Shown: piece after piece, positions 1-64,000 of the stretch
Layout: each line of letters starts with the position of its first letter
Position numbering within the stretch: the stretch's first letter is position 1
Source: Candidatus Saccharimonadota bacterium
GTDB taxonomy: Bacteria; Patescibacteriota; Saccharimonadia; Saccharimonadales; HK-STAS-PATE-42
DNA length: 64,000 nucleotides
Assembly: GCA_036826375.1 (NCBI GenBank)
Contig: DAISWL010000001.1
Span: 104,201-168,200 of the forward strand
Reading direction: 5' to 3'
The notes under the pieces: model-generated
The model's input: the letters and a program-made list of their open reading frames with translations, nothing else
Databases searched by the model: none
What the model was told of the DNA's origin: nothing
Made by a program: the position numbers and the translations under genes

Positions 1-681
1 GCCCCTGCCAACGCCTAAGAGAGATTCTGCAGCCTTGGCTATGTCGTCTTCATATTTTAATGCCGTAGCTATTATTTCTGGGCGTCTATCTATGGCTCCG
101 CAGCCGTGTAGATCATCGCCGTGGTCATCGTTATGAATACCCATAACCCAGCCCATGTTATTCATAATACTAACAACGTGTCTATCCATCTCTTTAAAAT
201 TATTAGCATTAGAGCCACTATAGCTGGATACTGCGAGAATTGAATAAAGAGTAGCTAAATCTCCGCCAAACAACTTAGGCCTTAGTTTTGATTGACTGGC
301 TTCCAGTTGATGTTCTTCTCCATCGAATTTAGTTTTGATCTTGGCCCAGATGGATTTAACCGGCCTGCCATCACCACAGCCAGAATCGTATACCTCAACT
401 GTTTTATAGTAATCTTGTTTTAGTATTTCTTGAGCTGCGTCATCGAGAATCTTCTCATCAATTCCGTTTTTACCACTCTCACCTGATATTGACCCCCCCC
501 CGAAGCCCAAACCGTTCGGCGCTATTTCGTCGACAACTATATCCCCTACCACTTCTCCTCCTTTTTTATTATCTAATATATCGGAAAGCCTGAGAGCTAA
601 TTTACCTAAAACCCTTAATAATCGTGAGGGTGCACTTCTAACAACTTCTGGCAATGACGGTTCGGCTTCTTCTTTTTCCAT
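1..681 (-). CDS. hypothetical protein, first 227 codons (gene runs off left edge)
   Basis: The minus-strand frame is open from ATG 681..679 to the window edge. It is absent from the supplied track because it has no stop in the window. My translation is MEKEEAEPSLPEVV...DSGCGDGRPVKS...GIHNDDHGDDLHGCGAIDRRPE. It has Cys/His/Asp-rich motifs but I do not recognise a family. It contains a C9/G9 run at 493-501 that encodes GGG. Confidence 0.45.
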   Translation of the reverse strand, partial: MEKEEAEPSLPEVVRSAPSRLLRVLGKLALRLSDILDNKKGGEVVGDIVVDEIAPNGLGFGGGSISGESGKNGIDEKILDDAAQEILKQDYYKTVEVYDSGCGDGRPVKSIWAKIKTKFDGEEHQLEASQSKLRPKLFGGDLATLYSILAVSSYSGSNANNFKEMDRHVVSIMNNMGWVMGIHNDDHGDDLHGCGAIDRRPEIIATALKYEDDIAKAAESLLGVGRG

Positions 682-746
682 GAAAATTATTATAACACAA
701 TTATTTAATAATTGCCAGCATTAGCAATACGCCCAGTTAAGTTTAA

Positions 747-3425
747 TTACCTTTTTTTACGGTTTTGACGCTCTTTTTTGCGAGATTTAGATTTAGCCTT
801 TTTGGCTTTTCCTGCTGCACGGTGAGCTTCCCCGCCGCTGTCGCTGCTCATTTTAACTTTAATTGGTCCTTCAAAATCTTCGGCGGATGATGCAACCCCA
901 GTAGTAATATCTTCAGCATTATCAACTGAGGCTTTGGCGGCCTTGGTTAATTCGGTTTCAATTACATTATCAACATCGCTTAAGTTGGCATGGAAAATTG
1001 GTTTCAGAACCTGGCGACGCAGTTCAATCTGCATAGCATCGAATAATTTTTGACCTTCAAAACGATATTCAACTAAAGGATCTTTCTGACCTATTGAGCG
1101 CCAACCAATTCCTTCACGCATATGATGCATACTCTCAAGATGCTCCATCCAGAGTACATCTAGAGCTTGTAGGTATACATCTCGCTGCAAAATATTTAGC
1201 TTATCTTCACCAAGAGCTTCTTTTTTATCTAAATAGGCCTTAGTAGCAATTTTGGATAACTCCTCGCTAAACTTAAGCAGCATCTTAGCTTGTTTTTTAG
1301 ATCCAGATCTTGGTAACTTATCTTTTTTGCTGTAACTCTTGATGACCCCGACTAGAGCATCTTTTTCTAGTTTGGTGAAATTAAACTGCTCTATTAATTT
1401 ATCAATTACATCTCCGGGTTTAGCGCCATCTTTCATTTCAGAAACAAGATCTTTAGCCTCTAAATCAATTAAGTTTAATATCTTATCTGATATATCCTCC
1501 CCATCTAAGGCCTTTCTACGATTAACATAAGTAAACTTACGGTGCCTATTCATTACATCATCATATTGAACCACATTCTTACGAGTATCAAAGTTAAATC
1601 CTTCAACCTTACCTTGTGCGGATTCTAACGATTTCGAAACCGAACGATGAGTAATTGCAGTATCTTCTTCAACTCCAAGCCGATTCATTAGGCCAGCTAA
1701 ACGCTCTCCTCCAAAGATACGCATTAAGTCATCTTCAGTTGAAACATAAAACTGAGTTATACCAGGATCACCCTGACGGCCAGAACGACCTCTAAGCTGA
1801 TTATCTATTCTGCGAGCTTCGTGCCTTTCGGAGCCGATAACCACTAAACCACCCTTATCTTTAACTTTCTGATCAAGCACAATATCTGTTCCACGCCCAG
1901 CAATGTTAGTAGCAAGAGTAACCGCCCCCGGCTGACCAGCCTTCGAAACGATCGTGGCTTCTGTTTCATTATTTTTAGCGTTAAGCACCTGATGAGGAAC
2001 TTTCGCCTCTGTTAGCAATGAGCTTAAAAGTTCATTTTTCTGGATCGATACCGTACCTATCAACACAGCTCGACCTTCTTTGTGATGCTCTCGGACATCC
2101 TCAATTAAGGATTTAAACTTACCGGATTCTGTCGAGAAAATCTTATCTGGTAAATCTTTACGAGCCAGCTCTCTGTTGGTTGGAATAACTATAACCTCAA
2201 TATCGTAAATTTGGTTAAATTCTTCTTCTTCTGTTTTGGCAGTTCCTGTCATCCCGGAAAGCTTTTTATATAAACGGAAATAGTTTTGGAAAGATATTGT
2301 GGCCAGAGTCATACTCTCCTCAAGCACATCAACACCCTCTTTAGCCTCAATGGCTTGGTGCAAACCTTCGTTATAACGCCTACCGTGCATTAAGCGACCG
2401 GTGAATTCATCTACAATTATTACTTCGCCGTCTTTATTAACTACGTAATCTCTATCGCGTTTAAATAAAGTTTCAGCTTTAAGCGCTTGTTCTAGGTGAT
2501 AAATTAAGCGGACATTATTAGGATCATAAAGATTTTCGACATTTAAAGTTTTCTCAATTTTTTCAATACCTTTTTGAGTAAGTACCACTGAACGGCGTTT
2601 TTCATCAAGATCATAATCTTCAGGGCTTAAATCTTTCATTATATCTGCAAATAAACGATAGCCAGATTCGCTCTCGCTAGCTGGAGCAGAAATAATAAGA
2701 GGAGTTCTAGCTTCATCAATTAAAATTGAATCTACTTCATCAACAATGGCGAAGTGAAGATCACGTTGCCTAAGCTGTTCTTTATCGCTGACCATATTAT
2801 CGCGTAAATAATCAAACCCAAATTCGTTGTTAGTTCCGTAAGTTATATCGGCCGCGTAAGCCTCCTTACGGCTAACTGGCATTAAATGATTAAAGCGTGG
2901 ATCATCATGATTATCATCGTTGAATTCTGGATTATAAATAAAACTCTGATCAGCAATGATAACACCCGTGCTTAAGCCTAAGCGATGATAAACCTCTGCC
3001 ATCCAACCTGCATCACGCTGAGCAAGATAATCGTTCACCGTTACCACATGAACGCCCTTACCCTCTAAAGCATTAAGGTAAACTGGCGCGGTAGCAACTA
3101 GAGTTTTTCCTTCACCGGTTTTCATCTCGGCTACATTGCCGTCATTAAGAGCCATTCCACCTATCAATTGAACATCGAAGTGACGCTGGCCTAAAACTCT
3201 TTTTGCAGTCTCTCGTGCAACTGCAAAGGCTTCTGGCAAAACGGCATCTAGCTTCTCGCCTTTTTTAAGACGTTTTTTAAATTCTTCAGTTTTCTTAGTT
3301 AAGTCCTCGTCATTAAGCTTAGATATTTGCGGCTCTAAATCATTAATTTTTTGAACCGTCTTCTTATATCTTTTTAAAATTGCATCTTGAGGATCACCCA
3401 ATACTTTAGATAAAATCTTTTTCAT
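747..3425 (-). CDS. secA: preprotein translocase ATPase SecA
   Basis: 892-aa ORF with SecA motor motifs MKTGEGKTLVATAP (Walker A), DEVDSILIDEARTPLIIS and LATNIAGRGTDI, followed by a helical scaffold and a basic C-terminal tail. Confidence 0.97.
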   Translation of the reverse strand: MKKILSKVLGDPQDAILKRYKKTVQKINDLEPQISKLNDEDLTKKTEEFKKRLKKGEKLDAVLPEAFAVARETAKRVLGQRHFDVQLIGGMALNDGNVAEMKTGEGKTLVATAPVYLNALEGKGVHVVTVNDYLAQRDAGWMAEVYHRLGLSTGVIIADQSFIYNPEFNDDNHDDPRFNHLMPVSRKEAYAADITYGTNNEFGFDYLRDNMVSDKEQLRQRDLHFAIVDEVDSILIDEARTPLIISAPASESESGYRLFADIMKDLSPEDYDLDEKRRSVVLTQKGIEKIEKTLNVENLYDPNNVRLIYHLEQALKAETLFKRDRDYVVNKDGEVIIVDEFTGRLMHGRRYNEGLHQAIEAKEGVDVLEESMTLATISFQNYFRLYKKLSGMTGTAKTEEEEFNQIYDIEVIVIPTNRELARKDLPDKIFSTESGKFKSLIEDVREHHKEGRAVLIGTVSIQKNELLSSLLTEAKVPHQVLNAKNNETEATIVSKAGQPGAVTLATNIAGRGTDIVLDQKVKDKGGLVVIGSERHEARRIDNQLRGRSGRQGDPGITQFYVSTEDDLMRIFGGERLAGLMNRLGVEEDTAITHRSVSKSLESAQGKVEGFNFDTRKNVVQYDDVMNRHRKFTYVNRRKALDGEDISDKILNLIDLEAKDLVSEMKDGAKPGDVIDKLIEQFNFTKLEKDALVGVIKSYSKKDKLPRSGSKKQAKMLLKFSEELSKIATKAYLDKKEALGEDKLNILQRDVYLQALDVLWMEHLESMHHMREGIGWRSIGQKDPLVEYRFEGQKLFDAMQIELRRQVLKPIFHANLSDVDNVIETELTKAAKASVDNAEDITTGVASSAEDFEGPIKVKMSSDSGGEAHRAAGKAKKAKSKSRKKERQNRKKR

Positions 3426-3537
3426 AACTCCTGTTTCTACCCCTTCTTCACACCCAATTAAATTGAAAATTAACTAAGCTTAATTTTAACACAGAATATG
3501 AATCAAACCCAACCTCCTAAATCCTAGAGCATAATGC

Positions 3538-3704
3538 TATAGCCCCCACAAAACAAATACGGGTCTTTTTGGATGATAGATCGGAGTGATGAAATAGTTT
3601 GTTATTTGAGTGAAACGTATCCGTAGATACATTGAATGAGAAAACAACTATTTCAGCCTGTGAGGTGCAGCTAAAAAGGCGGGTTTTGTTTTGCGGGGGC
3701 TATA
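3538..3704. repeat. 167-bp hairpin element with about 20-bp terminal inverted repeats, copy 1 (MITE-like or structured RNA)
   Basis: The termini are TATAGCCCCCACAAAACAAA ... TTTGTTTTGCGGGGGCTATA, and the internal arms are imperfectly complementary around CGTA. A second copy, about nine-tenths identical, lies at 37462-37629. Confidence 0.75.
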
Positions 3705-3718
3705 ACCTTGCTTTAAGT

Positions 3719-4510
3719 TTAATTATTGAGTTTTTCCGCCTGCAACCAATAACTCTCAAACATCTGACGCATTGTATCTGCATAAGCTTTGTTAATGGTT
3801 TCTAGCCCTACTTTTTGATCATCCCGCCAGTGGTAAACCGCAACCGTATCGTTATAAATAATAATTTGTTGATCTATATTTAAGATATCCTCGCCTATAT
3901 ATCTTCTTTCAAAATTAGTATAGAAATCTGAGTTTTTAGTAAAATCAGCTGGCTTTTTACCATGATTATTAATCTCTCTAATTTTATAGTTTGCATCTAC
4001 CGTTTTGGCCCGATGCTTTTCTGACCAGTTTTTATTCCCGGTTAAATCTTCAATTGTTCCTGAGCCAAAAACTAGGAGTTCCCCTTTTGTTTTTAGTTCG
4101 TTCCATAGCATCTGTTTGAAACCGCTGACGCCCTCGTAAGTATTAACTACAAATTTCAAGCTAGAATCTTCTTTATTAAATAACTTATTAAGCTTAGGCA
4201 AACTCATTTCTAGAGCTGTTTTTTTGGCATCTAGTTTAGATTCTTCTGTTTTGATTTGAACCTCTAAGTTTTTAGGGCTGGCTGGCAGAATTTTTTTACC
4301 TTCATCACTAATATTAACTGTTACTAAGCTTAATTTTTCAAGGTCATCAATAATTCTATAGATTTTTGTCCGGTTGATGCCTGTTTTTCTGGAGATATCT
4401 AAATGACTACTAGCCCCACTTTCTAATAAATAGATGTAAACTTTAGCCTGATCACCGCTAAGCCCTAATTTATTTAAGCTTAGCAAAATTCCGTTTTTGT
4501 TGTCCATCAT
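3719..4510 (-). CDS. TrmB-family winged-helix transcriptional regulator
   Basis: ORF 3719..4591. The HTH LGLSGDQAKVYIYLLESGASSHLDISRKTGINRTKIYRIIDDLEKLSLV is typical of TrmB-like regulators. I placed the start at Met28 (4510), but it is uncertain and could be as far upstream as 4591. Confidence 0.75.
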   Translation of the reverse strand: MMDNKNGILLSLNKLGLSGDQAKVYIYLLESGASSHLDISRKTGINRTKIYRIIDDLEKLSLVTVNISDEGKKILPASPKNLEVQIKTEESKLDAKKTALEMSLPKLNKLFNKEDSSLKFVVNTYEGVSGFKQMLWNELKTKGELLVFGSGTIEDLTGNKNWSEKHRAKTVDANYKIREINNHGKKPADFTKNSDFYTNFERRYIGEDILNIDQQIIIYNDTVAVYHWRDDQKVGLETINKAYADTMRQMFESYWLQAEKLNN

Positions 4511-4585
4511 AGTGAACAGTTTAGCATAACCTGCGCTATGATGCATAATAGTTATTATTAGATAATCTAAACAAAAGGAGTTTTT

Positions 4586-5476
4586 GTGCAAATTAAAGAA
4601 TCTTATAAAGGAACTCTCTCTCTCTTAACTGGCGCATTTTTATATGCTAGTTTTGGCGTATTTATAAGAGAAATGAACAAAATGTTTGGCGTATACGCCC
4701 AGGTAACTGCGAGGTACCTGATAGTTGTAGTAGCAGCCCTCATTCTTACCATAACATATAAGATAAGCTTAAAGATTGATAAAAAGGACTTGCTAAAAGT
4801 CATTATTTTTTCGGCTATGTTCCCAATTAGTGTGATACTATTTACTGTCTCTGCAATAAACACCAAAATATCTATAAGCGTATTTTTACTATACGGAGTA
4901 GGCTTAATTTTTTCAGTGATTCTTGGCAAAATTTTATTTAAAGAGAAGATTAATAAGCAAAAATCAGTCTCCGTCATTATTTCGTTATTAGGATTATTAG
5001 TATTCAGTGGCCTATTAAATAATAGTTTCTCATTGGGTCTAGGTATGGTTACTGGTTTTTTCGCAGGGGTATTTGATTCGCTTGCCAATGCATCTCGTAA
5101 GCTAGTCAAGGGTATTTCTTGGCAGAAACTATTATTCTGGCAATTTAGCTTCGGGTCACTTATATCTCTCGCTATATCATTTATTAGTGGCGAGCAGTTC
5201 ATAAAACAAGTTAGAATCTCTTCAATTGTGGTAACCATTATATTTGGTTTGTGCTTAACTCTTCTAAGCAGATTACTTTTGTACGGTTTCTCTAAGGTCG
5301 ATATCAACATAGCTACGCCCATTTTAGCTATGGAGCTTGTTTTCTCTGTAATTCTTGGATATTTATTTCTAAAGGAATCACCAGAAATTTATCAAATTTT
5401 AGGCGGATTATTTATAATCGCTGCTACCGTAATTGCATCTTTAGATTTAACAAGATTTAAAAAAATAAGAACCTAA
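4586..5476 (+). CDS. EamA/DMT-superfamily transporter
   Basis: GTG start, about 10 hydrophobic helices arranged as two EamA-like halves, 296 aa. Confidence 0.75.
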   Translation: MQIKESYKGTLSLLTGAFLYASFGVFIREMNKMFGVYAQVTARYLIVVVAALILTITYKISLKIDKKDLLKVIIFSAMFPISVILFTVSAINTKISISVFLLYGVGLIFSVILGKILFKEKINKQKSVSVIISLLGLLVFSGLLNNSFSLGLGMVTGFFAGVFDSLANASRKLVKGISWQKLLFWQFSFGSLISLAISFISGEQFIKQVRISSIVVTIIFGLCLTLLSRLLLYGFSKVDINIATPILAMELVFSVILGYLFLKESPEIYQILGGLFIIAATVIASLDLTRFKKIRT

Positions 5477-5494
5477 GCTTAAACCACAGAAGTA

Positions 5495-5553
5495 CAACTG
5501 GCGTTAATACATGTATTAACGCCAGTTGACTTGCTATAATACATGTATTATAG
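5495..5553. promoter_or_regulatory. two perfect palindromes sharing the core TAATACATGTATTA (candidate operators)
   Basis: 5495-5528 is CAACTGGCGTTAATACATGTATTAACGCCAGTTG (34-bp perfect palindrome) and 5534-5553 is CTATAATACATGTATTATAG (20-bp perfect palindrome). Their centres are 32 bp apart, directly upstream of the ATPase gene starting at 5561. Confidence 0.55.
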
Positions 5554-5560
5554 TTAATTT

Positions 5561-6676
5561 ATGATTAAACGATACCTACAGCCAATCGTAGAAGAATCCC
5601 TAAAACAAGGCTTAATCTCAGTTATTTACGGGGCCCGGCAAACCGGAAAAACAACCCTATCCCTAGAAATAGCCAAAAAATACCCCGGCTTTATCTATTT
5701 AAACTGCGATGAACCAGATGTAAGACTAAGCTTAACCAACCAAAATTCCGTAAATCTAAAAAGATTAATCGGTGATACCAGCCTTGTAATCATAGATGAG
5801 GCGCAAAGAGTTGAAAATATCGGCCTAACCGCTAAACTAATTTATGATGGCAAGTTAACCCAAAATTTAATACTAACCGGTAGTTCCAGCATCGATTTAG
5901 CCAATAAAGTAAAAGAGCCCCTAACTGGTAGAGCATCCGAGCACATCCTCTACCCCCTAAGTTTAAAAGAACTAACCACCAATAACTCCCAAATGTTTTC
6001 TAAGCTTAATGATTATCTAATTCATGGCGGTTATCCGGCTATTCAACAACTTAGTTCAAATGATGCAATAACCAGGCTTAAAACATTGGCTGGCCAATAT
6101 ATTTATAAAGATGTTTTTAACTTTAATACTAAACTTAATGAAGATTTAGTTAGCAGATTACTGCAGTTATTAGCCCTGCAGATTGGTAGTGAAGTATCTT
6201 ATGCCAACTTAGCTAATAAACTAGATGTATCCAAAGGAACTGTAGAAAGATATATCGATTTACTGGAAAAGGCCTTCATAATTTACCGATTCGCTCAGTT
6301 TAGGAAGAACCAACGTAACGAAATTGGGCGCCTTAGGAAAGTTTATTTTTATGATTTGGGTATCAGAAATGCCCTGGTTGATAATTTCAAACAGTTAGAA
6401 CTTAGGGATGATTCAGGTGCCCTGTGGGAAAACTTTATAATTAATGAACGCCGGAAGATGCATCAAAAAAATCTTTCAATTGTTAAGCAAATGTATTGGA
6501 GATCTCGCAGCAAGCAAGAAATAGATTTAGTTGAAGTTAGTAATCAAAATATATCAGCTTTTGAACTTAAGTTTAGTACTACTAAGATATTAAAGATTCC
6601 ATCTGAGTTCAAAACAAGTTATAATATAAACAACTTAGAGATTATAAACAATAAAAATTTTGTAGATTATATATAA
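5561..6676 (+). CDS. AAA+ ATPase, COG1373/DUF4143-type
   Basis: Walker A GARQTGKTTL and Walker B LVIIDEAQ. The C-terminal half resembles the DUF4143 region of this ATPase family. Confidence 0.7.
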   Translation: MIKRYLQPIVEESLKQGLISVIYGARQTGKTTLSLEIAKKYPGFIYLNCDEPDVRLSLTNQNSVNLKRLIGDTSLVIIDEAQRVENIGLTAKLIYDGKLTQNLILTGSSSIDLANKVKEPLTGRASEHILYPLSLKELTTNNSQMFSKLNDYLIHGGYPAIQQLSSNDAITRLKTLAGQYIYKDVFNFNTKLNEDLVSRLLQLLALQIGSEVSYANLANKLDVSKGTVERYIDLLEKAFIIYRFAQFRKNQRNEIGRLRKVYFYDLGIRNALVDNFKQLELRDDSGALWENFIINERRKMHQKNLSIVKQMYWRSRSKQEIDLVEVSNQNISAFELKFSTTKILKIPSEFKTSYNINNLEIINNKNFVDYI

Positions 6677-6684
6677 TTAACACC

Positions 6685-7512: not shown

Positions 7513-7552
7513 TGAATTAAACTTAAGCCTCAAATTTGTTGACGTTAGTTTA

Positions 7553-8015: not shown

Positions 8016-8092
8016 TGGTGGAGCATAGCGGATTCGAACCGCTCACCTCTTCGCTGCCAGCGAAGCGCTCTAGCCAAATGAGCTAATGCCCC
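8016..8092 (-). tRNA. tRNA-Ala (anticodon GGC), CCA encoded
   Basis: I folded the cloverleaf by hand: acceptor GGGGCAT/ATGCTCC with the G3:U70 Ala identity pair, D arm GCTC-ATTTGGCTA-GAGC, anticodon arm CTTCG-CTGGCAG-CGAAG, T arm AGCGG-TTCGAAT-CCGCT, then ACCA. Confidence 0.93.
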
Positions 8093-54690: not shown

Positions 54691-54695
54691 GACCT

Positions 54696-54842: not shown

Positions 54843-57695
54843 TTAGCTTTTCTCCAAACTTAAACTTAACTCCTTGCCATCAATTTTAACTTCCTCTTGA
54901 TGACTGTAACGAGAGGAACTGTCTATTTCGTTAGCCAAAGTCTCTTTTGCTATCTCATCTTTAAACTGCTCTATTGCAGAATTCAGAGTTTGGTCACTAC
55001 TGGTTAAACTTAATTTGATTCTATCATCAACATTTAGACCGGCGCTTTTACGAGCAGATTGAACCACTCGGATAACCTCGCGAGCCAAGCCTTCTGCTTT
55101 CAATTCATCTGTTAAATTGAAATCTAAGCTGATTTCTTCCCCACCAATATTAACTTCTTTAACGTTAAGTTCTTCTTTGATTACATCAATTAGATAATCT
55201 GGGCAAGAAGGAACCTGAATACTGGCTAACGGTTGGCGAACTTTCATTTGGGCTTTGGCTCTTAAGCTTAAGCCTTCGGTGATGTAGCCGCGGACGGCGT
55301 CCATCTCTTGCTCTAGCTTGGAATCTACCAAATCGGGATTAAGTTTAGGGTAATCCTCTAGATGAACTGATCCTTTATCTGTTAATTTGCGGAAGAGATC
55401 TTCAGCCATAAACGGCGCAAACGGAGCTATAAGCTTAGAAAATTCAACCAGAACATAATAAAGCGTATCGTAAGCAGACATTTTATCGCCATCATTTTCA
55501 GATTTCCAAAAACGCTTTCTGCTACGTCGAACAAACCAGTTGCTCAAATCATCTAGAAAAATGATTGTTGGGCGAGTGGCATCATTAAGCTTAAACTGAT
55601 CCATCCCTTCAGTTGCTGACTTTATCACATTCTGAAGTTTGCTTAAAATCCATCGATCAAGCGGGTTTTTGGAATCTGGAACTTTACCATATTCAGCTTC
55701 ATATCCATCAACACTAGCGTACATAGTGAAGAAATCGTAACTGTTATAAAGCATATTAAGTTTACGCTCCACTACTGTTATATCTTTATCGATAAGGTCG
55801 GCATCTTCTCCGTTCATAAAGGGAGAGTTGAACAAAAACATTCGCCAAGCATCAGCGCTTAACTGATCGTAAAGTACAGTTGGCTCGGTATAATTACCGA
55901 AGCTCTTACTCATTTTCCGACCATCATTGCCAGCTAATGTTCCGTGCGAAATAACATTTTTGAAACACTTTTTACCGAACAGACCGATACTCATTACATG
56001 CATGTAGTAGAACCAAGCCCTTGTTTGAGCAATATATTCGGTGATGAAATCTCCTGGGAAGTTATCTTCAAATTTCTGCTTGTTTTCAAATGGGTAATGG
56101 AACTGAGCAAAAGGCATACTACCGCTTTCAAACCAACAATCTATCACCTTGCCGATGTGATGCATGGTTGCTCCATCTAACTGGAATGTAACGTTAATCA
56201 CATTAGGGAGGTGGTAATCATCTAAGCTTAATCCTGTAAATTCGCTGAACTCGGCATAAGAACCAAATACTTTAACCACTTCGGTTCCATCTTGTTTTTG
56301 ACCTTTCCAAACAGGAATTGGCGTAGCCCAATATCTATCTCTACTTAAGTTCCAATCAGGAGCCGAATTAATGGTATTTTTGAATCTACCATCTTTAAGA
56401 TGAGCTGGAACCCAGTTTATCGAGTTGTTTTCTTCTAGCATCTCATTTTTTTGAGATTGAATATCAAAGAACCAGCTTGGATGAGCCCTATACATCAACT
56501 TACCGTCGCATCTGTGGCAGTGCGGATATTCGTGTTTAATGTATTCAACCTTAAGAGCTTTTTCTTCTGATACCAAGTTTTTAGCAATCTCTTTGTTAAC
56601 TTCCCAGATATTTTTGCCGAGCCATGGGCCTTGAGTATAACTACCATTTTCATCGACATCAATAACCAAGGGTAGATGATTAAGCTTAGCCAATTCGTAA
56701 TCATCCTCACCGTAAGCTGGCGCAATGTGAACCAAGCCAGAGCCATCCTCATCACTAACAAAATCAGCCTCTAAAATTTTGTGAGCCTCCGGACCGTGAC
56801 TTTCAAATAATGGCTCGTAATGCTTGCCCACTATTGAGCCGATTTCAAAATCACCAATCATTTCATAGTTTAATGGCTGATGCTTTTCATCTGTTAACAC
56901 TTTTTGGTATAGCTTTTTAGCTACAATAACATTTTTGCCATTAAGCTTAACCTCAACGTATTCGATGTTAGAATTAACCGCGATAGCCACATTCGCCGGA
57001 AGAGTCCATGGAGTAGTTGTCCACGCTAATAAATATTTATCCTGATCAACTAACTTGAAGTAAACGAACACGCTCGGGTCGGTATCCATCTGATAACTGT
57101 TATCCATAGCTACTTCTGATTTAGAAATTGGTGTAGCATCTTTTGTGCAGTAAAGCAGAACTTTTTCTCCCTCATATATTTTACCTTTTTCGTGCAACGT
57201 CTTGAACGCCCACCAAACTGATTCCATATATTCTTTATCCATAGTTCGATACGGCTTACTCATATCTACCCACCGACCGATGCGATCAACGGTATCGTTC
57301 CATTCATCACCCGTTTGGACCATGGCATCTCGGCAACTGTTAACGTAATCTTCTAAGCTTATTTTAGTGCCAATCTCTTTTTTAGATTTAATACCCAGTT
57401 TTTTCTCGGTGAAAACCTCGGCTGGTAAACCGTGACAATCCCAACCCCAATCTCGTTCCACTTTTTTGCCCTGCATTGTTTGGTAGCGGCAGACAGCATC
57501 TTTAACAGCACTAGTGGAAAGGTTACCATGATGCGGTAGGCCAGTGATAAACGGTGGACCATCATAAAATACAAATGCGTTATCAGCTGATCGCTGATCT
57601 ATAGATTTCTGAAAGGTATTGCCTTCCTTCCAATACTTTATGATCTGTTTTTCAACATCACTATGCTTATCTCTTTTTTCCGATTTAAATTTCAT
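54843..57695 (-). CDS. ileS: isoleucine--tRNA ligase, type 2 (eukaryote-like)
   Basis: FYDGPPFITGLPHHGN (HIGH region), KMSKS and a CP1 editing domain. 950 aa. Confidence 0.93.
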   Translation of the reverse strand: MKFKSEKRDKHSDVEKQIIKYWKEGNTFQKSIDQRSADNAFVFYDGPPFITGLPHHGNLSTSAVKDAVCRYQTMQGKKVERDWGWDCHGLPAEVFTEKKLGIKSKKEIGTKISLEDYVNSCRDAMVQTGDEWNDTVDRIGRWVDMSKPYRTMDKEYMESVWWAFKTLHEKGKIYEGEKVLLYCTKDATPISKSEVAMDNSYQMDTDPSVFVYFKLVDQDKYLLAWTTTPWTLPANVAIAVNSNIEYVEVKLNGKNVIVAKKLYQKVLTDEKHQPLNYEMIGDFEIGSIVGKHYEPLFESHGPEAHKILEADFVSDEDGSGLVHIAPAYGEDDYELAKLNHLPLVIDVDENGSYTQGPWLGKNIWEVNKEIAKNLVSEEKALKVEYIKHEYPHCHRCDGKLMYRAHPSWFFDIQSQKNEMLEENNSINWVPAHLKDGRFKNTINSAPDWNLSRDRYWATPIPVWKGQKQDGTEVVKVFGSYAEFSEFTGLSLDDYHLPNVINVTFQLDGATMHHIGKVIDCWFESGSMPFAQFHYPFENKQKFEDNFPGDFITEYIAQTRAWFYYMHVMSIGLFGKKCFKNVISHGTLAGNDGRKMSKSFGNYTEPTVLYDQLSADAWRMFLFNSPFMNGEDADLIDKDITVVERKLNMLYNSYDFFTMYASVDGYEAEYGKVPDSKNPLDRWILSKLQNVIKSATEGMDQFKLNDATRPTIIFLDDLSNWFVRRSRKRFWKSENDGDKMSAYDTLYYVLVEFSKLIAPFAPFMAEDLFRKLTDKGSVHLEDYPKLNPDLVDSKLEQEMDAVRGYITEGLSLRAKAQMKVRQPLASIQVPSCPDYLIDVIKEELNVKEVNIGGEEISLDFNLTDELKAEGLAREVIRVVQSARKSAGLNVDDRIKLSLTSSDQTLNSAIEQFKDEIAKETLANEIDSSSRYSHQEEVKIDGKELSLSLEKS

Positions 57696-57697
57696 AA

Positions 57698-58747
57698 TTA
57701 TTCCTCCTTTTCTTTTTTAATTGGATAATCTTTACAGGATGGTATCACCCCATTCCAAGCACCATCAAAACTAACAGTTTCTGCCTGCTTACATGCATCA
57801 TATATACTGGCCTGAACCGCTTCTGCGGCCGCATTACCTATAATATCTACTTCGAAGTGTATTGTATTTTGAGTCTCAGAGAACCATGCGCCTTTTTTAT
57901 TTAAGGGTTTTTTAATTTCATTAGTGCTGAATACAAATACGCTGTCTCCATCTGAGCTCGTGTGTACTGGATGGATAGCTCTTATTTGACCATGAGTTGC
58001 AATGTGTGCGACACGTTCATAATGTTCTTTTGAATCTAGGTCGACATTAATACCTACAACAGATATAGTGGTGTTGGCTTGATCTTGCGTAACAAAATTT
58101 TGTAAACCTGCATACTCTTTGAAAACCGTAAACTCGTCACGATTACCCGCAATTATCTCACCCTTTGGGTCGACAACATTTCCAATTGCATTAACAACGG
58201 ATAGGGCTGTCACGATAATACCGTTACCTAAGTCAATCCTAGCACTTCCTACTCCAGCCTTCATTGCCCCGCTCTTAGTCCCACCTTCAACATATTGGAA
58301 CTTACCCACCGAGGTTCCCGTTCCAGCCCCAACATTACCGCAGACTACCGGGTCGCTACTTAAGTTATCATACGCAATTCTAGCGTATCCAGATTCAAAA
58401 GGCGCTATTCTCATACCCTGGTCAAATACTATTGCGCCAGATACAGAAGGGTTGTATACGTCCCCTATGCGTGATCCCTTCTTGTCTTTACGAAGTAAAT
58501 CTATAAACTCTGCTCCAGTAATAAGACCTGTAGTGCTACCACCAGATATGAATATACCCCATTCCTTATAGTCAGTTTTTCCAGATAGTAATCCCTGGGT
58601 ATTAAAAGAACCTATCGCTCCACCGTCACCCTTGTACGCGACGGTTAGCGGTTCATCAAAAGATATAAGGGTACAACCTGTCATTTTATCTGTAATACTT
58701 GCATGACCAACCTTAACTCCCTTAAGTGCTGTTATAGTGTTATTCAT
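57698..58747 (-). CDS. P1/S58 family peptidase (DmpA/BapA-like aminopeptidase)
   Basis: ITALKGVKVGHASITDKMTGCTLISF and GAGTGTSVGKF patterns. The stop is 2 nt upstream of the ileS start. Confidence 0.8.
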   Translation of the reverse strand: MNNTITALKGVKVGHASITDKMTGCTLISFDEPLTVAYKGDGGAIGSFNTQGLLSGKTDYKEWGIFISGGSTTGLITGAEFIDLLRKDKKGSRIGDVYNPSVSGAIVFDQGMRIAPFESGYARIAYDNLSSDPVVCGNVGAGTGTSVGKFQYVEGGTKSGAMKAGVGSARIDLGNGIIVTALSVVNAIGNVVDPKGEIIAGNRDEFTVFKEYAGLQNFVTQDQANTTISVVGINVDLDSKEHYERVAHIATHGQIRAIHPVHTSSDGDSVFVFSTNEIKKPLNKKGAWFSETQNTIHFEVDIIGNAAAEAVQASIYDACKQAETVSFDGAWNGVIPSCKDYPIKKEKEE

Positions 58748-58748
58748 A

Positions 58749-59105
58749 TTATTTCTCCTCCTTTAACTTAATTGTTATAGCCACCATCTCTCCTCTATTA
58801 CTACATTCTAGAGCCGCCCTAGATTCTTCTTCATTGCATCCAATTAGAACTTTAATTTCGGAATCTTTTTTTACAGGATCAAAAATTACTAAAACTCCAC
58901 TAACCTCTTTTCTATTTTCAGATCCGCACCACACATCAATTCCTCCGCCATCTTGAGATTCTGTCCCTTCGATATAACCATAATCAAGAGGGTAAATATA
59001 TTCTGGATATCGTGGATGAGCTGAGCCTTTGGGCCTATCAATAATAACCCTACTGCTTAATAACGATTTTTCTAATTCTGATTTAAACTTAAGCTTATCT
59101 TCCAT
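58749..59105 (-). CDS. inorganic-pyrophosphatase-like small protein
   Basis: From Met30 of the track ORF: IIDRPKGSAHP...YPLDYGYIEGTESQDGGGIDVW resembles the PPase core (E.PkGs...YP.nYGfip.T...DgDp.Dv). Confidence 0.5.
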   Translation of the reverse strand: MEDKLKFKSELEKSLLSSRVIIDRPKGSAHPRYPEYIYPLDYGYIEGTESQDGGGIDVWCGSENRKEVSGVLVIFDPVKKDSEIKVLIGCNEEESRAALECSNRGEMVAITIKLKEEK

Positions 59106-59115
59106 TATGAATCTC

Positions 59116-59622
59116 TTACTTTCTTTTATAGTTATCTTCAATTTCTGTTTGCCCAGCTTGCTTTTTGTTGCTAGGCTTGCTACTATTAGCATACAAACTG
59201 CCGTTAGGCATCCGAGGCTTCATCTTTGCAGGTGAAGCCGTTTTTAGTATTAAGTTTAAGTTAGTGTTAATTTCAGTCAACTTTCCGGGGCTGATTCTGT
59301 GTAGCTTCCTAAGTAAACGACGAGATGAAAGTATTCTCATTTGTGAAAGAATTAGAGTTCTAGAATCCCCAAACAGCTTTACCGTATGGTAGTATTCGCC
59401 CGATTTAAGCTTGGAGGTGAGGGGTATAGCCCAAAATAATTCCTTATTGAACTTGCGTATTATTAAAATGGGGCGCTCAAAATCTTGATTCTTACCGTCT
59501 TCTTCGTGGCCAACATTAATTCCTATAGAACACCACCAAATATCGCCAGCTCTGAAATCGGGAGCTGTTCGGACATCCAGTTCTTTCTTAATTTCATTCC
59601 AACTGTTAAAATCTTTTTTCAT
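59116..59622 (-). CDS. PemK/MazF-family toxin-like protein with an unusual C-terminal tail
   Basis: FRAGDIWWCSIGINVGHEEDGKNQDFERPILIIRKF ... AIPLTSKLK ... LSQMRILSSRRL follows the MazF/PemK SH3-like barrel pattern. An additional tail of about 45 aa follows. Confidence 0.65.
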   Translation of the reverse strand: MKKDFNSWNEIKKELDVRTAPDFRAGDIWWCSIGINVGHEEDGKNQDFERPILIIRKFNKELFWAIPLTSKLKSGEYYHTVKLFGDSRTLILSQMRILSSRRLLRKLHRISPGKLTEINTNLNLILKTASPAKMKPRMPNGSLYANSSKPSNKKQAGQTEIEDNYKRK

Positions 59623-59624
59623 AC

Positions 59625-59712
59625 AAAAAACCTCTTACTTTCTTTTTGTCAGAACCCTACGGAGCTTTACGCGAAGTTGGGTGGTACCATCTGACTTTTA
59701 GAAAATAAGAGG
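59625..59712 (-). promoter_or_regulatory. long hairpin plus U6 immediately 5' of the MazF-like start, sequestering its SD
   Basis: On the minus-strand RNA, CCUCUUAUUUUCU (59712-59700) pairs with AGAAAGUAAGAGG (59643-59631) over 13 bp including one G.U. An inner helix is GUCAGA/UCUGAC. This is followed by UUUUUU, GU and then AUG at 59622. The only SD-like AAGAGG lies inside the stem. Confidence 0.5.
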
Positions 59713-59908
59713 CTAATATGCTCAAATTTCTAACACTTAATGACTGCTGTTTCGGGCTTACCCGGCGAGTTCTAATTTCCTTAAGCTCCATCTCATTTAT
59801 ATTGAGATCCTGAATCAAGTTCAGAATGGCTTGAAGATTTCTTCTCACTAGCGTTCGTGGTTGATAGCCACTCATCCATTTAATAAATTTAATGGAATGC
59901 TTTCACCT

Positions 59909-59942
59909 GCCTTAAGCTTAGCATATTAGCTAAACTTAAGGC
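59909..59942. repeat. inverted pair of the abundant word forming a 14-bp hairpin downstream of nrdJ
   Basis: GCCTTAAGCTTAGC-ATATTA-GCTAAACTTAAGGC, with one mismatch in the stem. Confidence 0.7.
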
Positions 59943-59978
59943 AATAAATGTGTATTGAAACTAGCGGGATTTCGAAAT

Positions 59979-62687
59979 CTAACTACACCCGCTTGTTGAA
60001 CCGCAAGATGTGCAGATGTAACAGCTTCCAGCACGCTGAGTGATGTTACCGCAGTTGCTACAAAGTGGAGCCGCATCATGATTACCTGCGTAAGCTTTTC
60101 TTGCGGCCTTAACTTCCTCAACAACCTGAGATTTTTCTACCGGCTCGCTCAAAAATGAAGTTTGATTAGGCGAATTTTCAAGATCTTCAATGCTGATTAA
60201 GTTTAACTCGAGGCGGTCATCTATCGGTAGATATTGCTCTGCAAGCTTCTTAACTATGTAATCTATAATCGAGTTAGCGGTAGGTACCGATGGATCATCA
60301 GTGGCTCCGAATGGCGCGAAATTAGAGTTCATTAAAGATTTAACATAGGTTCGTAGAGGTACTCCATAACGTAAACCGTGACTAACACTTATAGCGAAAG
60401 AATCCATTAAGCCTGAGAGTGTTGAACCCTGCTTGGATACATTAATAAATATCTCGCCCGGACGACCATCGTCATATTCACCTACAGTTAAGAAGCCTTT
60501 TACTCCTCCAACTTTAAATTCGTAAGTTTTGCTAGGTCTAACCTTTGGTAAATCATGTTTGGTTGCAACCTGCCCAGAGTTTTTGGTTTCATTAGTTTTT
60601 TCTTCAGATTCACCATCTTTTTTGGTGGTCGAAAGCGGTTGAGCAAACTTACAATTATCTCTATAAACTGCTACAGCCTTGAGCCCCAATTTCCAAGCTT
60701 GCATGTGGATATTTTCGATATCCTCAGCTGTGGCATCCTCTGGTAAGTTAACTGTCTTTGATATAGCACCAGAGAGGAATGGCTGAACAGCGGACATCAT
60801 TTTAATGTGGCCCATATAATCTATAATGTTATCGCCCATTGAACAAGCGAAAACTGGAGTATGCTCATTTTTTAAGTGTGGTGCGCCTATAATTGTTTTT
60901 TCCTCATCAATATATTTGATAATCTCATCAATTTGCTGGTGCGAGTAACCCAAAGTTCTAAGCGCTCTTGATATAGTTTGATTAACTATACTCATAGTAC
61001 CGCCACCTACTAATTTTTTAGTTTTCACTAAGCTTAAATCTGGTTCAATTCCAGTTGTATCACAATCCATCATGAAAGCTATAGTGCCAGTAGGAGCTAG
61101 AACTGTAGCCTGCGCATTTCTTACGCCGCTAAGCTTGGCCTGCTCAACTGTGCTATCCCATGCTGAAGTTCCGGCTTTGTGGATATCCGCTAGAACACCT
61201 TGTGATGGAATAGTTTTAGCAACAGCCTGATGTTGCTTTAGAATCTTGAGAACGTTATCGGCATCTTTGGTATATTCTAAAAATGGACCAACTCTACTTG
61301 CTATATGAGAACTGATTTCATACGCATATCCCGTCATAATAGATGTCAAAGAGGCAGCGATATTACGACCCTCATCGCTATCGTAAGGTAACCCCATTGC
61401 CATTAAAAGAGCGCCCAGATTAGCATAGCCTAAGCCTAATTGGCGGAAGGCTTTAGCGTTTTTGGTAATTCCAACTGTTGGGTATTCGCTATAACCAACT
61501 AGAATTTCTTGGCCGATAAACATGATCTTAACCACGTGCTTATAGGCATCAATATCAAAACTGCCGTCTTCGTTCAAAAACTTAAGCAAATTTATTGAGG
61601 CCAAATTACAAGCTGAATTATCTATGTGCATGTATTCACTGCATGGGTTAGAGGCATTGATTCTATCTTCATTTGGAGTAGTGTGCCAGTTGTTGATTGT
61701 AGTATCGAACTGTAGACCCGGATCGGCGCACTCCCACGCGCTTTCAGCAATTTGCCTCCATAGATTTTTAGCCTTGATGGTTTTAATAGCTCTGCCATCT
61801 TTAACAGCCTTAAGTTGCCAATCTTGATCATTTTCAACGGCGTTCATAAAATCGTCGGTAACTCTGACTGAATTATTGGCATTCTGATATTGAACCGAGA
61901 AGGCATCCTTGCCATTTAAATCCATATCAAAACCAGCAGCGGCTAGAGCTCTAGATTTACGCTCTTCAATCGCCTTGCACCAGATGAACTCCTCGATATC
62001 AGGATGATCGATATCTAGAATTACCATTTTTGCCGCTCGGCGAGTTTTACCGCCAGATTTAATTGTTCCGGCAACAGAATCTGCTCCACGCATGAAACTA
62101 ACTGGGCCAGAGGAATATCCGCCGCTACCACCCAGCCTTTCTTGTGATGAGCGTAATCTTCCTAAATTAGTTCCGGCTCCGGAACCGCCTTTAAATATCA
62201 TGCCCTCATCCTTATACCACTCTAGTATTGATTCCATGGTATCTTCTACTTTCAAGATGAAACAGGCACTAGCTTGTTGAGATCTCTCTGGCACACCGAT
62301 ATTAAACCAAACTGGAGAGTTAAATGCTGCCCTCTGAGAAGTTAAAGTAAACTTAAGTTCATCACGATATATTTCAGCTTCATGATCATCGATAAAATAA
62401 CCATTTTTTTTGCCATGGTCAGTAATTGTATCAGCAACCCTGTTGACCAATTGCTTTAGTGAATGCTCTCTGGTTGGAGTACCGGGAGTACCGCTAAAGT
62501 ACTTTTGGCTAACGATATTAACTGCATTCACCGACCAATTCTGGGGGAATTCAGCTCCTTTTTGTTCGAAAACTGTTTCACCAGTGAAAGGATTACTAAT
62601 TAAAGCATCTCTTTTCTGCCAATCGAACATATCGTAAACGGCTACACCATCTTGAGTGAAGTGCCTTAATATAGAAAATTTACTCAT
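59979..62687 (-). CDS. nrdJ: class II (adenosylcobalamin-dependent) ribonucleotide reductase
   Basis: 902 aa with NPCSEY and TGIEPD active-site regions, an N-terminal ATP-cone-less class II layout, and a C-terminal CSNCGN...CYICTSCG zinc ribbon. Confidence 0.92.
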   Translation of the reverse strand: MSKFSILRHFTQDGVAVYDMFDWQKRDALISNPFTGETVFEQKGAEFPQNWSVNAVNIVSQKYFSGTPGTPTREHSLKQLVNRVADTITDHGKKNGYFIDDHEAEIYRDELKFTLTSQRAAFNSPVWFNIGVPERSQQASACFILKVEDTMESILEWYKDEGMIFKGGSGAGTNLGRLRSSQERLGGSGGYSSGPVSFMRGADSVAGTIKSGGKTRRAAKMVILDIDHPDIEEFIWCKAIEERKSRALAAAGFDMDLNGKDAFSVQYQNANNSVRVTDDFMNAVENDQDWQLKAVKDGRAIKTIKAKNLWRQIAESAWECADPGLQFDTTINNWHTTPNEDRINASNPCSEYMHIDNSACNLASINLLKFLNEDGSFDIDAYKHVVKIMFIGQEILVGYSEYPTVGITKNAKAFRQLGLGYANLGALLMAMGLPYDSDEGRNIAASLTSIMTGYAYEISSHIASRVGPFLEYTKDADNVLKILKQHQAVAKTIPSQGVLADIHKAGTSAWDSTVEQAKLSGVRNAQATVLAPTGTIAFMMDCDTTGIEPDLSLVKTKKLVGGGTMSIVNQTISRALRTLGYSHQQIDEIIKYIDEEKTIIGAPHLKNEHTPVFACSMGDNIIDYMGHIKMMSAVQPFLSGAISKTVNLPEDATAEDIENIHMQAWKLGLKAVAVYRDNCKFAQPLSTTKKDGESEEKTNETKNSGQVATKHDLPKVRPSKTYEFKVGGVKGFLTVGEYDDGRPGEIFINVSKQGSTLSGLMDSFAISVSHGLRYGVPLRTYVKSLMNSNFAPFGATDDPSVPTANSIIDYIVKKLAEQYLPIDDRLELNLISIEDLENSPNQTSFLSEPVEKSQVVEEVKAARKAYAGNHDAAPLCSNCGNITQRAGSCYICTSCGSTSGCS

Positions 62688-62916
62688 TTTACCCTCCTAA
62701 GATCCATTAAGTTTAAATTGATTTTTTATTTGTTTAAAATGTAGGAACTTTCACTTCCACCTGAATTCCCTCATAAAAACTAATTAGTACTTGTTGTGAT
62801 ACTAAAAAGCTGAATTAGCCCTTATGACGAGACTCTCTAAACTTAACGAAAGTTCAGAACTTTAAAAGGCCCATCTTTGAAGAATGACCGTCCAATCTAC
62901 CCCGTTTAACCCTTTT

Positions 62917-63369
62917 TTATTTTTTTGTTCTAACCCTTTTTAGGGCTTTGTCGAAATCTTCCAAACAAGTAAAGTTATTATAAACACTAGCAAAACGAAT
63001 ATAAGCCACTTCATTAACATCTAGTAGTTTATCTAGAATGATGTCGCCAATCCCCTTGGATTTTATTTCATGCTCGTTTAGGGAATAGATCGCATCCTCA
63101 ATTCTACCAACCAAATCTTCAACTTCTAAATTTGACTCGAAGAACTTACCAACCGATTTATCTAAAGCATGTAAAAGTTTTTCTCTACTGAAAAGCTCCC
63201 TGGATCCATCCTTTTTTACCACTGCGATGTTCGGCCTTTCCAGCCTCTCATAGGTGGTAAATCTACCCTTGCAGTCTGGGCATTCTCTTCGACGTCTTAT
63301 TGATGGACCAGCGGCATCTCGCGACTCTAAAACTCTGGTGTCGTTATTTTTGCATTTAGGACATTGCAT
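62917..63369 (-). CDS. nrdR: transcriptional repressor NrdR
   Basis: MQCPKCKNNDTRVLESR ... CPDC zinc ribbon plus an ATP-cone domain. Confidence 0.95.
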   Translation of the reverse strand: MQCPKCKNNDTRVLESRDAAGPSIRRRRECPDCKGRFTTYERLERPNIAVVKKDGSRELFSREKLLHALDKSVGKFFESNLEVEDLVGRIEDAIYSLNEHEIKSKGIGDIILDKLLDVNEVAYIRFASVYNNFTCLEDFDKALKRVRTKK

Positions 63370-63410
63370 TAAACTATTAAACTCCTTTGAAAGATTTTAA
63401 CGATCACAAA

Positions 63411-63457
63411 ACCTATATATAGTGTTTGCTGTATCTATTCTAACGCTATATATAAGC
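63411..63457. promoter_or_regulatory. tandem NrdR boxes
   Basis: ACCTATATATAGTGT (63411-63425) and ACGCTATATATAAGC (63443-63457) have centres 32 bp apart upstream of nrdR. They fit the published NrdR-box consensus acaCwAtATaTwGtgt as I recall it. Confidence 0.7.
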
Positions 63458-63472
63458 ATTTTCAATACAAAT

Positions 63473-64000
63473 TTAGTCGTCTTTTTTACCACGTAATCTT
63501 CGCCAGAAAGCCGGTGTATCATGTTCATCTTGATCATCAAACATAGATTTAACCTGGGAATCATCATCATCTAGGCTTGCCTCTACGCTGTGCTTATGTT
63601 TTCCTGAGTGATCATCATCTATTGAAGTTTCTTCGGTTCTTACATCTTCAATGACGTGAATAGGATTATCGCTTGACGAAACTTGATCATCATCCATGGT
63701 CACAATCTCTGTTTTGGAGCCGGAACGAGATCCGAAATAATTAGGGTCAAAACCCGTTGCTATAACGGTGATAGCCATTTTATCGCCTAAGCTTTCATCT
63801 ATAGTGGCGCCAAAAATAATATTAGCATCGGATGATACCGCAGTTGTAATAACTTCAGCGGCTTCGTTAATTTCATGCATAGATATGTTCATTCCACCAG
63901 CAACGTTGAACAAAACTCCTCTTGCGCCATCGATTGAGACCTCTAGTAAAGGCGATTCAATAGCCTGTTGGGCGGCAAGAACTGCCCTGTTCTCTCCAGA
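63473..64000 (-). CDS. ftsZ: cell division protein FtsZ, C-terminal 175 codons (gene continues past the right edge)
   Basis: The frame is open to the window edge. It reads SGENRAVLAAQQAIESPLLEVSIDGARGVLFNVAGG...ITVIATGF, then an acidic linker and a C-terminal DTPAFWRRL peptide. Confidence 0.93.
   Translation of the reverse strand, partial: SGENRAVLAAQQAIESPLLEVSIDGARGVLFNVAGGMNISMHEINEAAEVITTAVSSDANIIFGATIDESLGDKMAITVIATGFDPNYFGSRSGSKTEIVTMDDDQVSSSDNPIHVIEDVRTEETSIDDDHSGKHKHSVEASLDDDDSQVKSMFDDQDEHDTPAFWRRLRGKKDD

Follow-up and report, generated by a model that had tools for sequence, protein, structure and literature searches.

An asymmetric 10-mer saturates the resident DNA of a Saccharibacteria clade and may serve as a self-recognition word

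A 64,000-nt stretch of Saccharibacteria DNA (contig DAISWL010000001.1, positions 104,201 to 168,200; hereafter the window) is saturated with one short word, the degenerate 10-mer 5′-TTAAGYTTAR-3′. Its core occurs 162 times in the 51,427 bp of resident DNA, or 3.15 copies per kb and one per 317 bp, an over-representation that is excluded as chance, and it is nearly missing from a 12.6-kb inserted block (25,071–37,643) that carries 3 copies (0.24 per kb) and zero within 25,615–36,981. The word is dense in at least seven species-level lineages, is retained between species, and often lies where motif-free relatives encode a peptide that cannot spell it. We classify it with the genome-saturating self-recognition words, here in a new phylum, and tentatively favor a role in natural transformation. 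A preliminary description of the window, made by eye, had estimated 150–165 copies outside 25.1–37.5 kb and a depletion within that interval; our counts bear out both statements (165 copies in the whole window), and the seven coordinates that it gave as examples all hold the words assigned to them.

The word is degenerate and asymmetric

Searching both strands of the window (GC content 38.4%) for TAAGYTTA/TAAACTTA yielded 165 cores, consisting of 58 copies of TAAGCTTA, 58 of TAAGTTTA and 49 of TAAACTTA. The preliminary description had called the word palindromic, which proved incorrect. The consensus TTAAGYTTAR combines eight fixed positions with a pyrimidine at the center and a purine at the end. 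Of the 165 cores, 134 match it over its whole length, and in the sequence logo conservation spans these 10 bases with none in the flanks outside. The palindrome TTAAGCTTAA is simply the self-complementary special case of this consensus, matching on both strands. A palindrome of the type of HIP1 (highly iterated palindrome 1) is not what we found, self-complementarity being limited to 58 of the 165 cores and 21 of the 134 full 10-mers.

Sorted by their centers, 21 sites were TTAA-GC-TTAA, 60 were TTAA-GT/AC-TTAA, and TTAA-AT-TTAA occurred once. The consensus is asymmetric because position 10 of the GT form varies between A (60) and G (31) while position 1 stays T (60 T, 3 C), and because TTAA-AT-TTAA is represented by a single site. 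The four combinations of Y and R are found at 21, 60, 22 and 31 sites, in agreement with the prediction from base composition for two twofold-degenerate positions (calculated from the form counts), so that a hypermutable base is unnecessary to explain them. Genuine one-off variants form only a small halo, mostly of transitions. Decay of a palindrome by deamination was considered in view of the rarity of TTAA-AT-TTAA and the frequent occurrence of TTAAATTTAA at lost sites, and was rejected as the main explanation by the coupled asymmetries and the composition fit. The word also contains AGCT, TTAA, AAGCTT and CTTAAG; the latter two are enriched and not avoided, which upholds the earlier opinion that a restriction-modification target is unlikely.

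Abundance against chance

A Markov model of order 3 trained on the window, and inflated by the word, predicted about 10 occurrences per word with strands pooled, compared to 107–116 observed. When the motif was masked, the same order of model predicted 0.27–0.63 occurrences per 10-mer form compared to 22–60 observed, indicating an approximately 80–95-fold enrichment. Shuffling of synonymous codons, which kept the proteins intact (52 resident genes, 300 shuffles), gave 18.4 ± 4.0 copies with a maximum of 30, and shuffling of codon order in resident genes gave 8.0 ± 2.8, both compared to 125 observed copies. At peptide level, 125 of the 219 word-compatible sites in resident genes are spelled with the word, as are 32 of the 41 sites encoding LSL; in the inserted block the count is 2 of 18. 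The extreme over-representation claimed in the preliminary description thus lies far above the Markov and codon-shuffle nulls that it had proposed as a check. It had also placed the density above that of the DNA uptake sequence (DUS) of Neisseriaceae and the uptake signal sequence (USS) of Pasteurellaceae, which occur at about 1 copy per kb, and the density of resident DNA agrees with this.

Retention of sites and replacement of amino acids

For the analysis of site retention, eleven syntenic genes were aligned between four motif-bearing species with 68–75% nucleotide identity. Word sites were kept as members of the word class in another species in 48–82% of cases, whereas control 8-mers matched for composition and frame were identical in 7–18%. 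The site table resolved two subclades, one of the window species with L304 and one of L303 with L305 (L numbers denote loci of relatives and strains), each with its own extra sites. The central Y toggled repeatedly between species, and losses often proceeded via TTAAATTTAA. In the IleS gene, 5 of 11 sites were common to the window species and L097, and each lineage had filled in others.

In-gene copies aligned to the outgroups without indels or change of length, within conserved genes. Across SecA, SerS, IleS and RarA, motif-free outgroups encoded word-incompatible peptides at 19 of 24 sites, with replacements such as KQM to LNL, GEL to LSL and IRYR to IKLK. Two of these genes were as follows:

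54843..57695, minus strand: IleS, 11 copies, 9 of them where at least one of two motif-free outgroups has an incompatible peptide
747–3425, minus strand: SecA, example span about 1948..2700, 5 copies, 4 of them where the peptide of the motif-free outgroup cannot spell the word

Judging from these alignments, the pressure behind the word suffices to change residues of essential proteins where their positions are variable.

Distribution among Saccharibacteria

The word-dense lineages, at least seven at species level, carry 2.0–4.6 copies per kb. Loci of relatives are listed with protein identity to the window species and word density:

L091 / L303: SecA 89%, RarA 80%; 899-kb contig; 4.6 and 3.7 per kb
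L304: RarA 82%; 3.2 per kb
L305: RarA 80%, GC content 43%; 3.7 per kb
L308: RarA 78%; 2.7 per kb
L307: RarA 73%; 2.4 per kb
L093 / L094: SecA 81%; 2.0–2.6 per kb
L097: IleS 66%; 397-kb contig; 2.0 per kb
L306: RarA 67%; from a metagenome that also contains a strain of the window species; 0.12 per kb
L095: SecA 66%; no copy within 16.7 kb
162 other Saccharibacteria loci (2.59 Mb): 0.076 per kb overall, 0.17 per kb where GC content is below 40%

Across the 162 background loci, the word's observed/expected ratios equaled those of scrambled control words, and no comparably abundant 8-mer was found in any other Saccharibacteria locus examined. The comparison with sister genomes suggested in the preliminary description therefore identified the word as specific to a lineage, and the equal frequency in unrelated AT-rich genomes that it had named as grounds for abandoning the signal was not seen among the Saccharibacteria loci with GC content below 40%. 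On this distribution, the word is a derived character confined to one small clade. The metagenome collection scanned with IleS, from which L097 and L098 came, did not contain the close clade.

The mix of forms differed between lineages. L097 (1-22877) carried 37 GT/AC sites and 9 palindromic ones, with TAAATTTA raised to 8 sites, and L304 (1-21146) carried 10 TAAATTTA sites; dialects or successive stages of decay may underlie these differences. Outside the dense clade, L098 (1-21914) and L175 (1-22955) showed a weak enrichment of the palindromic core only: with strands pooled, TAAGCTTA was found 10 times vs 1.7 expected in L098 and 8 times vs 0.5 expected in L175, both small counts. These loci may show the same phenomenon at its beginnings or as a remnant. 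In the motif-free loci L024, L054, L071, L037, L011, L041, L044 and others, the top over-represented 8-mer was often a palindrome, such as GTATATAC (12 vs 0.3 expected, L024), GCTATAGC (10 vs 1.2, L054) and GGAATTCC, which may partly be an artefact of the z-score used, as it statistically favors palindromes.

Placement in genes, spacers and strain-variable DNA

Copies inside genes numbered 127 of 165 (77%) and those in spacers or at gene ends 38, the density in spacers (3–7 per kb) being above that in genes. Within the 64 kb of the window, the plus strand carried 58 copies of the asymmetric form and the minus strand 49 (p = 0.44), and the preferred strand did not switch along the sequence; relative to the coding strand, 38 copies were sense and 45 antisense. 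In each orientation, two of the three reading frames were occupied, while the third would read TAA as a stop codon. The earlier statement that copies lie inside genes on both strands therefore stands and a strand skew was not seen, but its claim of all frames has to be reduced to two per orientation, with one frame left empty. Because both usable frames and both orientations are filled and spacers are denser, the signal operates at the DNA level and not at the level of protein or RNA. Spacing between copies was Poisson-like (coefficient of variation, CV, 0.99), with no even spacing or local periodicity within the window. Segments and individual sites are listed below:

1..25070, both strands: resident segment, 92 copies, about 3.7 per kb, in genes and spacers
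37644..64000: resident segment, 70 copies, about 2.7 per kb
25607, 36982 and 37030: the copies within the inserted block
737..746, plus strand: full 10-mer TTAAGTTTAA, 1 nt 3′ of the SecA stop codon
12073..12083: self-complementary form CTTAAGCTTAA, gene-internal
16264..16274: self-complementary form CTTAAGCTTAA, divergent intergenic spacer
5474..5481, plus strand: TAAGCTTA, its TAA serving as stop codon for gene 4586-5476
3714-3721, 22212-22219, 41170-41177 and 49238-49245: further words whose TAA (or the TAA of the complementary strand) is a stop codon
54784..54797: TAAACTTAAGTTTA, a head-to-head pair sharing its central TTAA, perfect palindrome of 14–16 bp, between tRNA-Glu and IleS
54105-54118 and 59084-59097: further overlapping head-to-head pairs, in spacers
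59907..59944, minus strand: hairpin from two inverted word copies, 16-bp stem, 6-nt loop, −24.3 kcal/mol, about 35–40 nt 3′ of the NrdJ stop codon
6791..6798: copy at a junction of strain-variable and shared DNA; strains carry TAAGTTTA vs TAAGCTTA, and homology begins at the word
7726..7733: copy abutting a strain-variable junction (window position 7734)

Five genes stop at the word's own TAA, and in 9 of 61 genes a copy lies near the stop codon. Two of the six structural junctions abut a copy (2 of 4 strain-variable junctions and 0 of 2 island junctions); we regard this association as a weak lead and not as a finding. One strain-variable cassette (4594-5504) encodes an EamA transporter here and a 2-hydroxyacid dehydrogenase in strain L082 and in the sister species at 89% identity; another (6800-7733, compared with L082/L083) holds an open reading frame (ORF) of 275 aa here and four ORFs, including a transposase, in L082. 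Most strain-variable DNA carries the word at 2–4 copies per kb, pointing to exchange of this DNA within the motif-bearing clade.

A word-poor inserted block

The inserted block was delimited by Pfam matches, synteny and its junctions:

25071..37643: word-poor inserted block, biosynthesis-type cluster

It encodes two short-chain dehydrogenases (SDRs), a 452-aa protein without Pfam match, a PRAI-like protein, an ArgRS-like paralogue, an asparagine synthase, an AMP-binding enzyme and a class-III aminotransferase. An IS30-like HTH_38 gene lies at the flank of this cluster, and in strain L301 the aminotransferase is split by a Transposase_mut gene. To judge by these families, the pathway looks like one of small-molecule or aminoacyl-derived biosynthesis. 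The block was found in every strain of the window species and was missing next to RarA in three sister species, where synteny runs on at both sides of its position; it was thus gained on the window species' own branch. We regard the block as acquired horizontally, and as apparently too recent to have gathered the word. The preliminary description had spoken of host DNA; the window is not a case of host against phage but a piece of bacterial chromosome with a horizontally acquired biosynthetic cluster.

A near-perfect long inverted repeat of 168 bp, with the ends TATAGCCCCCGCAAAAC...GTTTTGCGGGGGCTATA and a predicted folding energy of −76.8 kcal/mol, is present at 3538-3704, upstream of SecA, and at 37462-37629, at the right edge of the block by the RarA stop codon, the two copies being 90% identical. 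This element, which is free of the word, occurs in all strains of the species and was not found in the sister-species loci; it has the look of a newcomer of the miniature inverted-repeat transposable element (MITE) type.

Organism and gene content

The genes of the window are bacterial housekeeping genes, among them SecA, IleS, NrdJ, SerS, Tgt, RarA, ParAB, ribosomal protein S2 and EF-Ts, and the closest SecA and IleS sequences all belong to Saccharibacteria (TM7, ultra-small bacteria of the candidate phyla radiation (CPR)/Patescibacteria). The window species was recovered at 99.7–100% identity in many metagenome assemblies and in the NCBI metagenome-assembled genome GCA_049290995.1; since it recurs across these assemblies, the word is not an assembly artefact. 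The available strains, being 99.7–100% identical, offer too few differences for a strain-polymorphism analysis of the word.

Tgt (42274-43641, 455 aa) matched its family profile in two stretches, implying an insertion of about 90 residues; Tgt proteins of sister species measure 411–447 aa. ParB and ParA genes lie at 52451-54080. Such genes are usually found near the replication origin. The cumulative GC skew showed no turning point anywhere in the window, and the local skew appeared to track gene orientation. A PemK/MazF-type toxin gene (59116-59622, 168 aa) and a peptidase S58 gene (57698-58747) had no counterpart in the related loci fetched and may be further accessory genes. Two TrmB-like helix-turn-helix (HTH) paralogues (3719-4591 and 40318-41172) occupy fixed places next to SecA and Tgt in all motif-bearing species, with a weak tblastn match in only 1 of 161 motif-free loci; they could be called candidate word-binding proteins only in the loosest sense.

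Discussion

We tentatively interpret TTAAGYTTAR as a word for self-recognition, of the DUS, USS or HIP1 type, that is linked to natural transformation and spreads by molecular drive. According to this interpretation, some component of uptake or recombination (type IV pilus plus Com machinery) would prefer DNA fragments bearing the word. Alleles in which mutation had made a copy would be taken up and recombined into neighbor cells more often than alleles in which a copy had been lost. Copies would consequently build up by molecular drive in long-resident DNA, in either orientation and in any tolerant frame, and the accumulation would halt only where protein function forbids. DNA newly arrived from outside the clade would have gained no copies yet. 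We infer the uptake preference, the receptor, and the action of drive over site-by-site selection. Because the word ignores frame and strand, is denser in spacers, is kept across species and costs amino acids, selection at each site is unlikely, and drive appears more plausible. Extrapolation of the density to a genome of about 0.9 Mb gives roughly 3,000 sites per genome.

The uptake reading is favored because the word is clade-specific, shows no orientation bias, is missing from recent DNA and is retained, and because the phylum is naturally competent. Experiments showed cultivated Saccharibacteria to be naturally transformable via ComEC, and genes of the Com machinery and the type IV pilus are conserved throughout the CPR (PMC10633639). 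Non-palindromic hyper-abundance, orientation balance, clade restriction and depletion in acquired DNA, which characterize DUS and USS at the sequence level, were all found for the word. A lineage-specific uptake or self-recognition signal was already among the hypotheses of the preliminary description; its clade specificity held up and it remains the best-fitting hypothesis, but about 100 kb of clade DNA yielded neither a receptor nor a competence gene nor a methyltransferase.

Several observations weigh against the uptake reading. Those cultivated Saccharibacteria that were transformed needed no special sequence (PMC10633639). The roughly 100 kb of clade DNA, in which no competence, pilin or receptor gene was found, amounts to about 10% of a genome. 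Partner proteins were sought by regular-expression scans for methyltransferase, Vsr and prepilin motifs and by a phyletic tblastn screen of the window proteins against motif-bearing and motif-free loci; neither approach gave a convincing candidate. Only small membrane proteins and the two TrmB-like HTH proteins were clade-restricted, and PDDEXK_1 was widespread. Only one strong hairpin (at NrdJ) and three overlapping pairs represent inverted pairs in the window, and 77% of the copies are gene-internal, whereas about half of the DUS/USS copies reside in terminators (10.1101/2025.10.24.684340). The spacing is random (CV 0.99) and not more even than chance. At 3–4.6 copies per kb, the word exceeds every DUS and USS in density three- to fivefold, so that build-up through uptake would have to be unusually strong. 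Finally, the sequence evidence is equally compatible with a drive based on repair or methylation.

Among known systems, DUS (Neisseriaceae, GCCGTCTGAA core, with the minor pilin ComP as receptor) and USS (Pasteurellaceae, AAGTGCGGT) are, like the word, short (9–12 bp), non-palindromic, over-represented and free of orientation bias. The word differs from them in its unrelated, AT-rich sequence with two twofold-degenerate positions, in its occurrence in CPR/Patescibacteria, and in its density (3–4.6 vs about 1 per kb). Shared traits include a family-level clade specificity with lineage variation, placement in tolerated frames of genes plus spacers, depletion in recently acquired DNA, inverted pairs forming hairpins 3′ of genes (for the word, the NrdJ hairpin), and naturally competent organisms (here at phylum level; PMC10633639).

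HIP1 (GCGATCGC) of cyanobacteria resembles the word in its density of up to more than one copy per gene, its mostly intragenic location, the retention of its sites above controls, and the existence of lineages with few or no copies. Its over-representation is 15–300-fold (PMC5861425), compared to approximately 80–95-fold for the word. Methylated copies of HIP1 raise natural transformation up to more than 100-fold, and recent work proposes that HIP1 acts as an uptake sequence (10.1101/2024.09.10.611283; 10.64898/2026.06.24.733823). However, HIP1 is a strict GC-rich palindrome with two known methyltransferases, whereas the word is asymmetric and AT-rich; HIP1 shows a 10–90-kb periodicity, a scale beyond the 64-kb window, whereas the local spacing of the word is random; and HIP1 is phylum-wide, whereas the word is confined to a small clade.

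Chi and KOPS (FtsK-orienting polar sequences) or architecture-imparting sequences are likewise over-represented 8-mers, read by DNA-processing machines, but they are strongly skewed and about ten times rarer, and the word shows no skew. Repetitive extragenic palindromes (REPs), bacterial interspersed mosaic elements (BIMEs) and MITEs share with the word their many short copies and some intergenic hairpins, but they are extragenic, longer, structured and mobile, unlike an in-gene 10-bp word. We rejected a REP/MITE-type repeat as 127 of the 165 copies are intragenic, with no structure beyond 10 bp and no indels. To our knowledge, only two families of proteobacteria have an established self-recognition word that saturates the genome (DUS and USS), and for cyanobacteria one is proposed (HIP1). 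The preliminary description knew of no such signal in organisms of this kind, and our literature searches agree: full-text searches returned no report of an uptake sequence or of the word in Saccharibacteria or Patescibacteria, and the literal string appeared only in cloning primers. Among the matches listed from IMG/VR viruses, which were searched for closely spaced pairs, we found only chance pairs and microsatellites of 6 or 10 bp, in unrelated viruses.

Rather unlikely in our estimate, though the main rival, is an intracellular drive without uptake, in which the word would be marked by a sequence-specific methyltransferase and near-matches would be turned into it by biased mismatch repair or a very-short-patch (VSP)-like activity. 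Elhai's model is reportedly the classical form of this view for HIP1. The pattern is indeed HIP1-like, as it is mostly intragenic, enriched about 80–95-fold and retained across species (PMC5861425). AGCT, AAGCTT, CTTAAG and TTAA inside the word are typical type II targets, the C/T toggle at the center and TTAAATTTAA at lost sites would be expected from deamination of methylated C in AGCT, and no recombination between cells is required. However, the asymmetry of the center is coupled to that of the ends, a coupling that palindrome decay would not give, the frequencies of Y and R match the background composition, and the T form is not depleted, unlike the expectation for VSP-type repair. The absence of a methyltransferase or Vsr signature from about 100 kb of clade DNA also counts against this drive, if weakly for so small a sample; no methyltransferase signature of the DPPY, NPPY or PCQ type was present in ORFs of at least 120 aa from the window, L082, L083, L091, L093 and L094, about 10% of a genome. 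We also know of no enzyme that repairs mismatches toward a 10-bp word at all eight fixed positions.

It is unlikely that the word is a high-density site for a clade-specific nucleoid-associated or chromosome-organizing protein, with each site held by natural selection. The strict half-site TTAAG followed by the relaxed YTTAR does resemble the target of a dimeric DNA-binding protein, and the two TrmB-like HTH paralogues are kept in motif-bearing loci and nearly absent from motif-free ones. Cross-species retention is well above controls, and Xu et al. read the same pattern in HIP1 as selection, proposing a nucleoid role (PMC5861425). Nevertheless, selection would have to maintain about 3,000 costly sites, each with an almost nil effect on fitness, which is unlikely in an epibiont of small population size; the spacing is random, and a site-free insertion present in every strain is left unexplained. 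No nucleoid protein known to us has thousands of near-perfect 10-bp sites.

Quite improbable, in our view, is a sequence-directed repair or gene-conversion activity that would write near-matches into TTAAGYTTAR without any receptor, overriding amino acids in essential proteins of a reduced CPR genome. Such intracellular conversion, if true, would amount to a drive that propagates itself by writing the genome; we know of no organism in which a mechanism of this kind has been characterized.

A polar chromosome signal such as Chi (read by RecBCD/AddAB) or KOPS (read by FtsK), marking self DNA or the direction of replication, is close to refuted. The word is an over-represented 8–10-mer, 2 of the 6 structural junctions abut a copy, and for HIP1 a function in recombination similar to that of Chi has been suggested (10.1101/2024.09.10.611283), but there is no strand skew (58 plus vs 49 minus, p = 0.44) and no switch along the window, one third of the copies are identical on both strands, and the density is more than 10 times that of Chi or KOPS.

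An origin as by-product or as mobile-element debris is already refuted: the genome is AT-rich (38% GC) and the word encodes the common residues L, K, S and N, but the Markov controls, the nulls preserving proteins or codons (8–18 vs 125 copies) and the relatives, with AT-rich loci at 0.17 per kb and L305 at 43% GC carrying 3.7 per kb, rule out composition, codon usage and favored peptides, and a footprint or copy of a small mobile element, superficially suggested by the likeness of TTAA-NN-TTAA to a target-site duplication, is rejected because nothing is conserved past 10 bases in the flanks and in-frame copies show neither indels nor change of length relative to outgroups.

If the uptake reading is confirmed, the candidate phyla radiation, a very large and mostly uncultivated diversity that depends on other cells and on imported DNA, would gain its first word of this kind. 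TTAAGYTTAR would then also be the densest case known, dense enough to reshape proteins. It would mark a sharp boundary of gene flow, readable from sequence, between Saccharibacteria of the same sample. Word density would be usable for the binning of contigs, the detection of foreign islands and the dating of insertions, and the word placed on donor DNA might raise transformation efficiency in organisms that are hard to manipulate. The word also offers an independent, asymmetric and AT-rich system for distinguishing uptake drive from methylation or repair and from selection, a question that for HIP1 is open after three decades.

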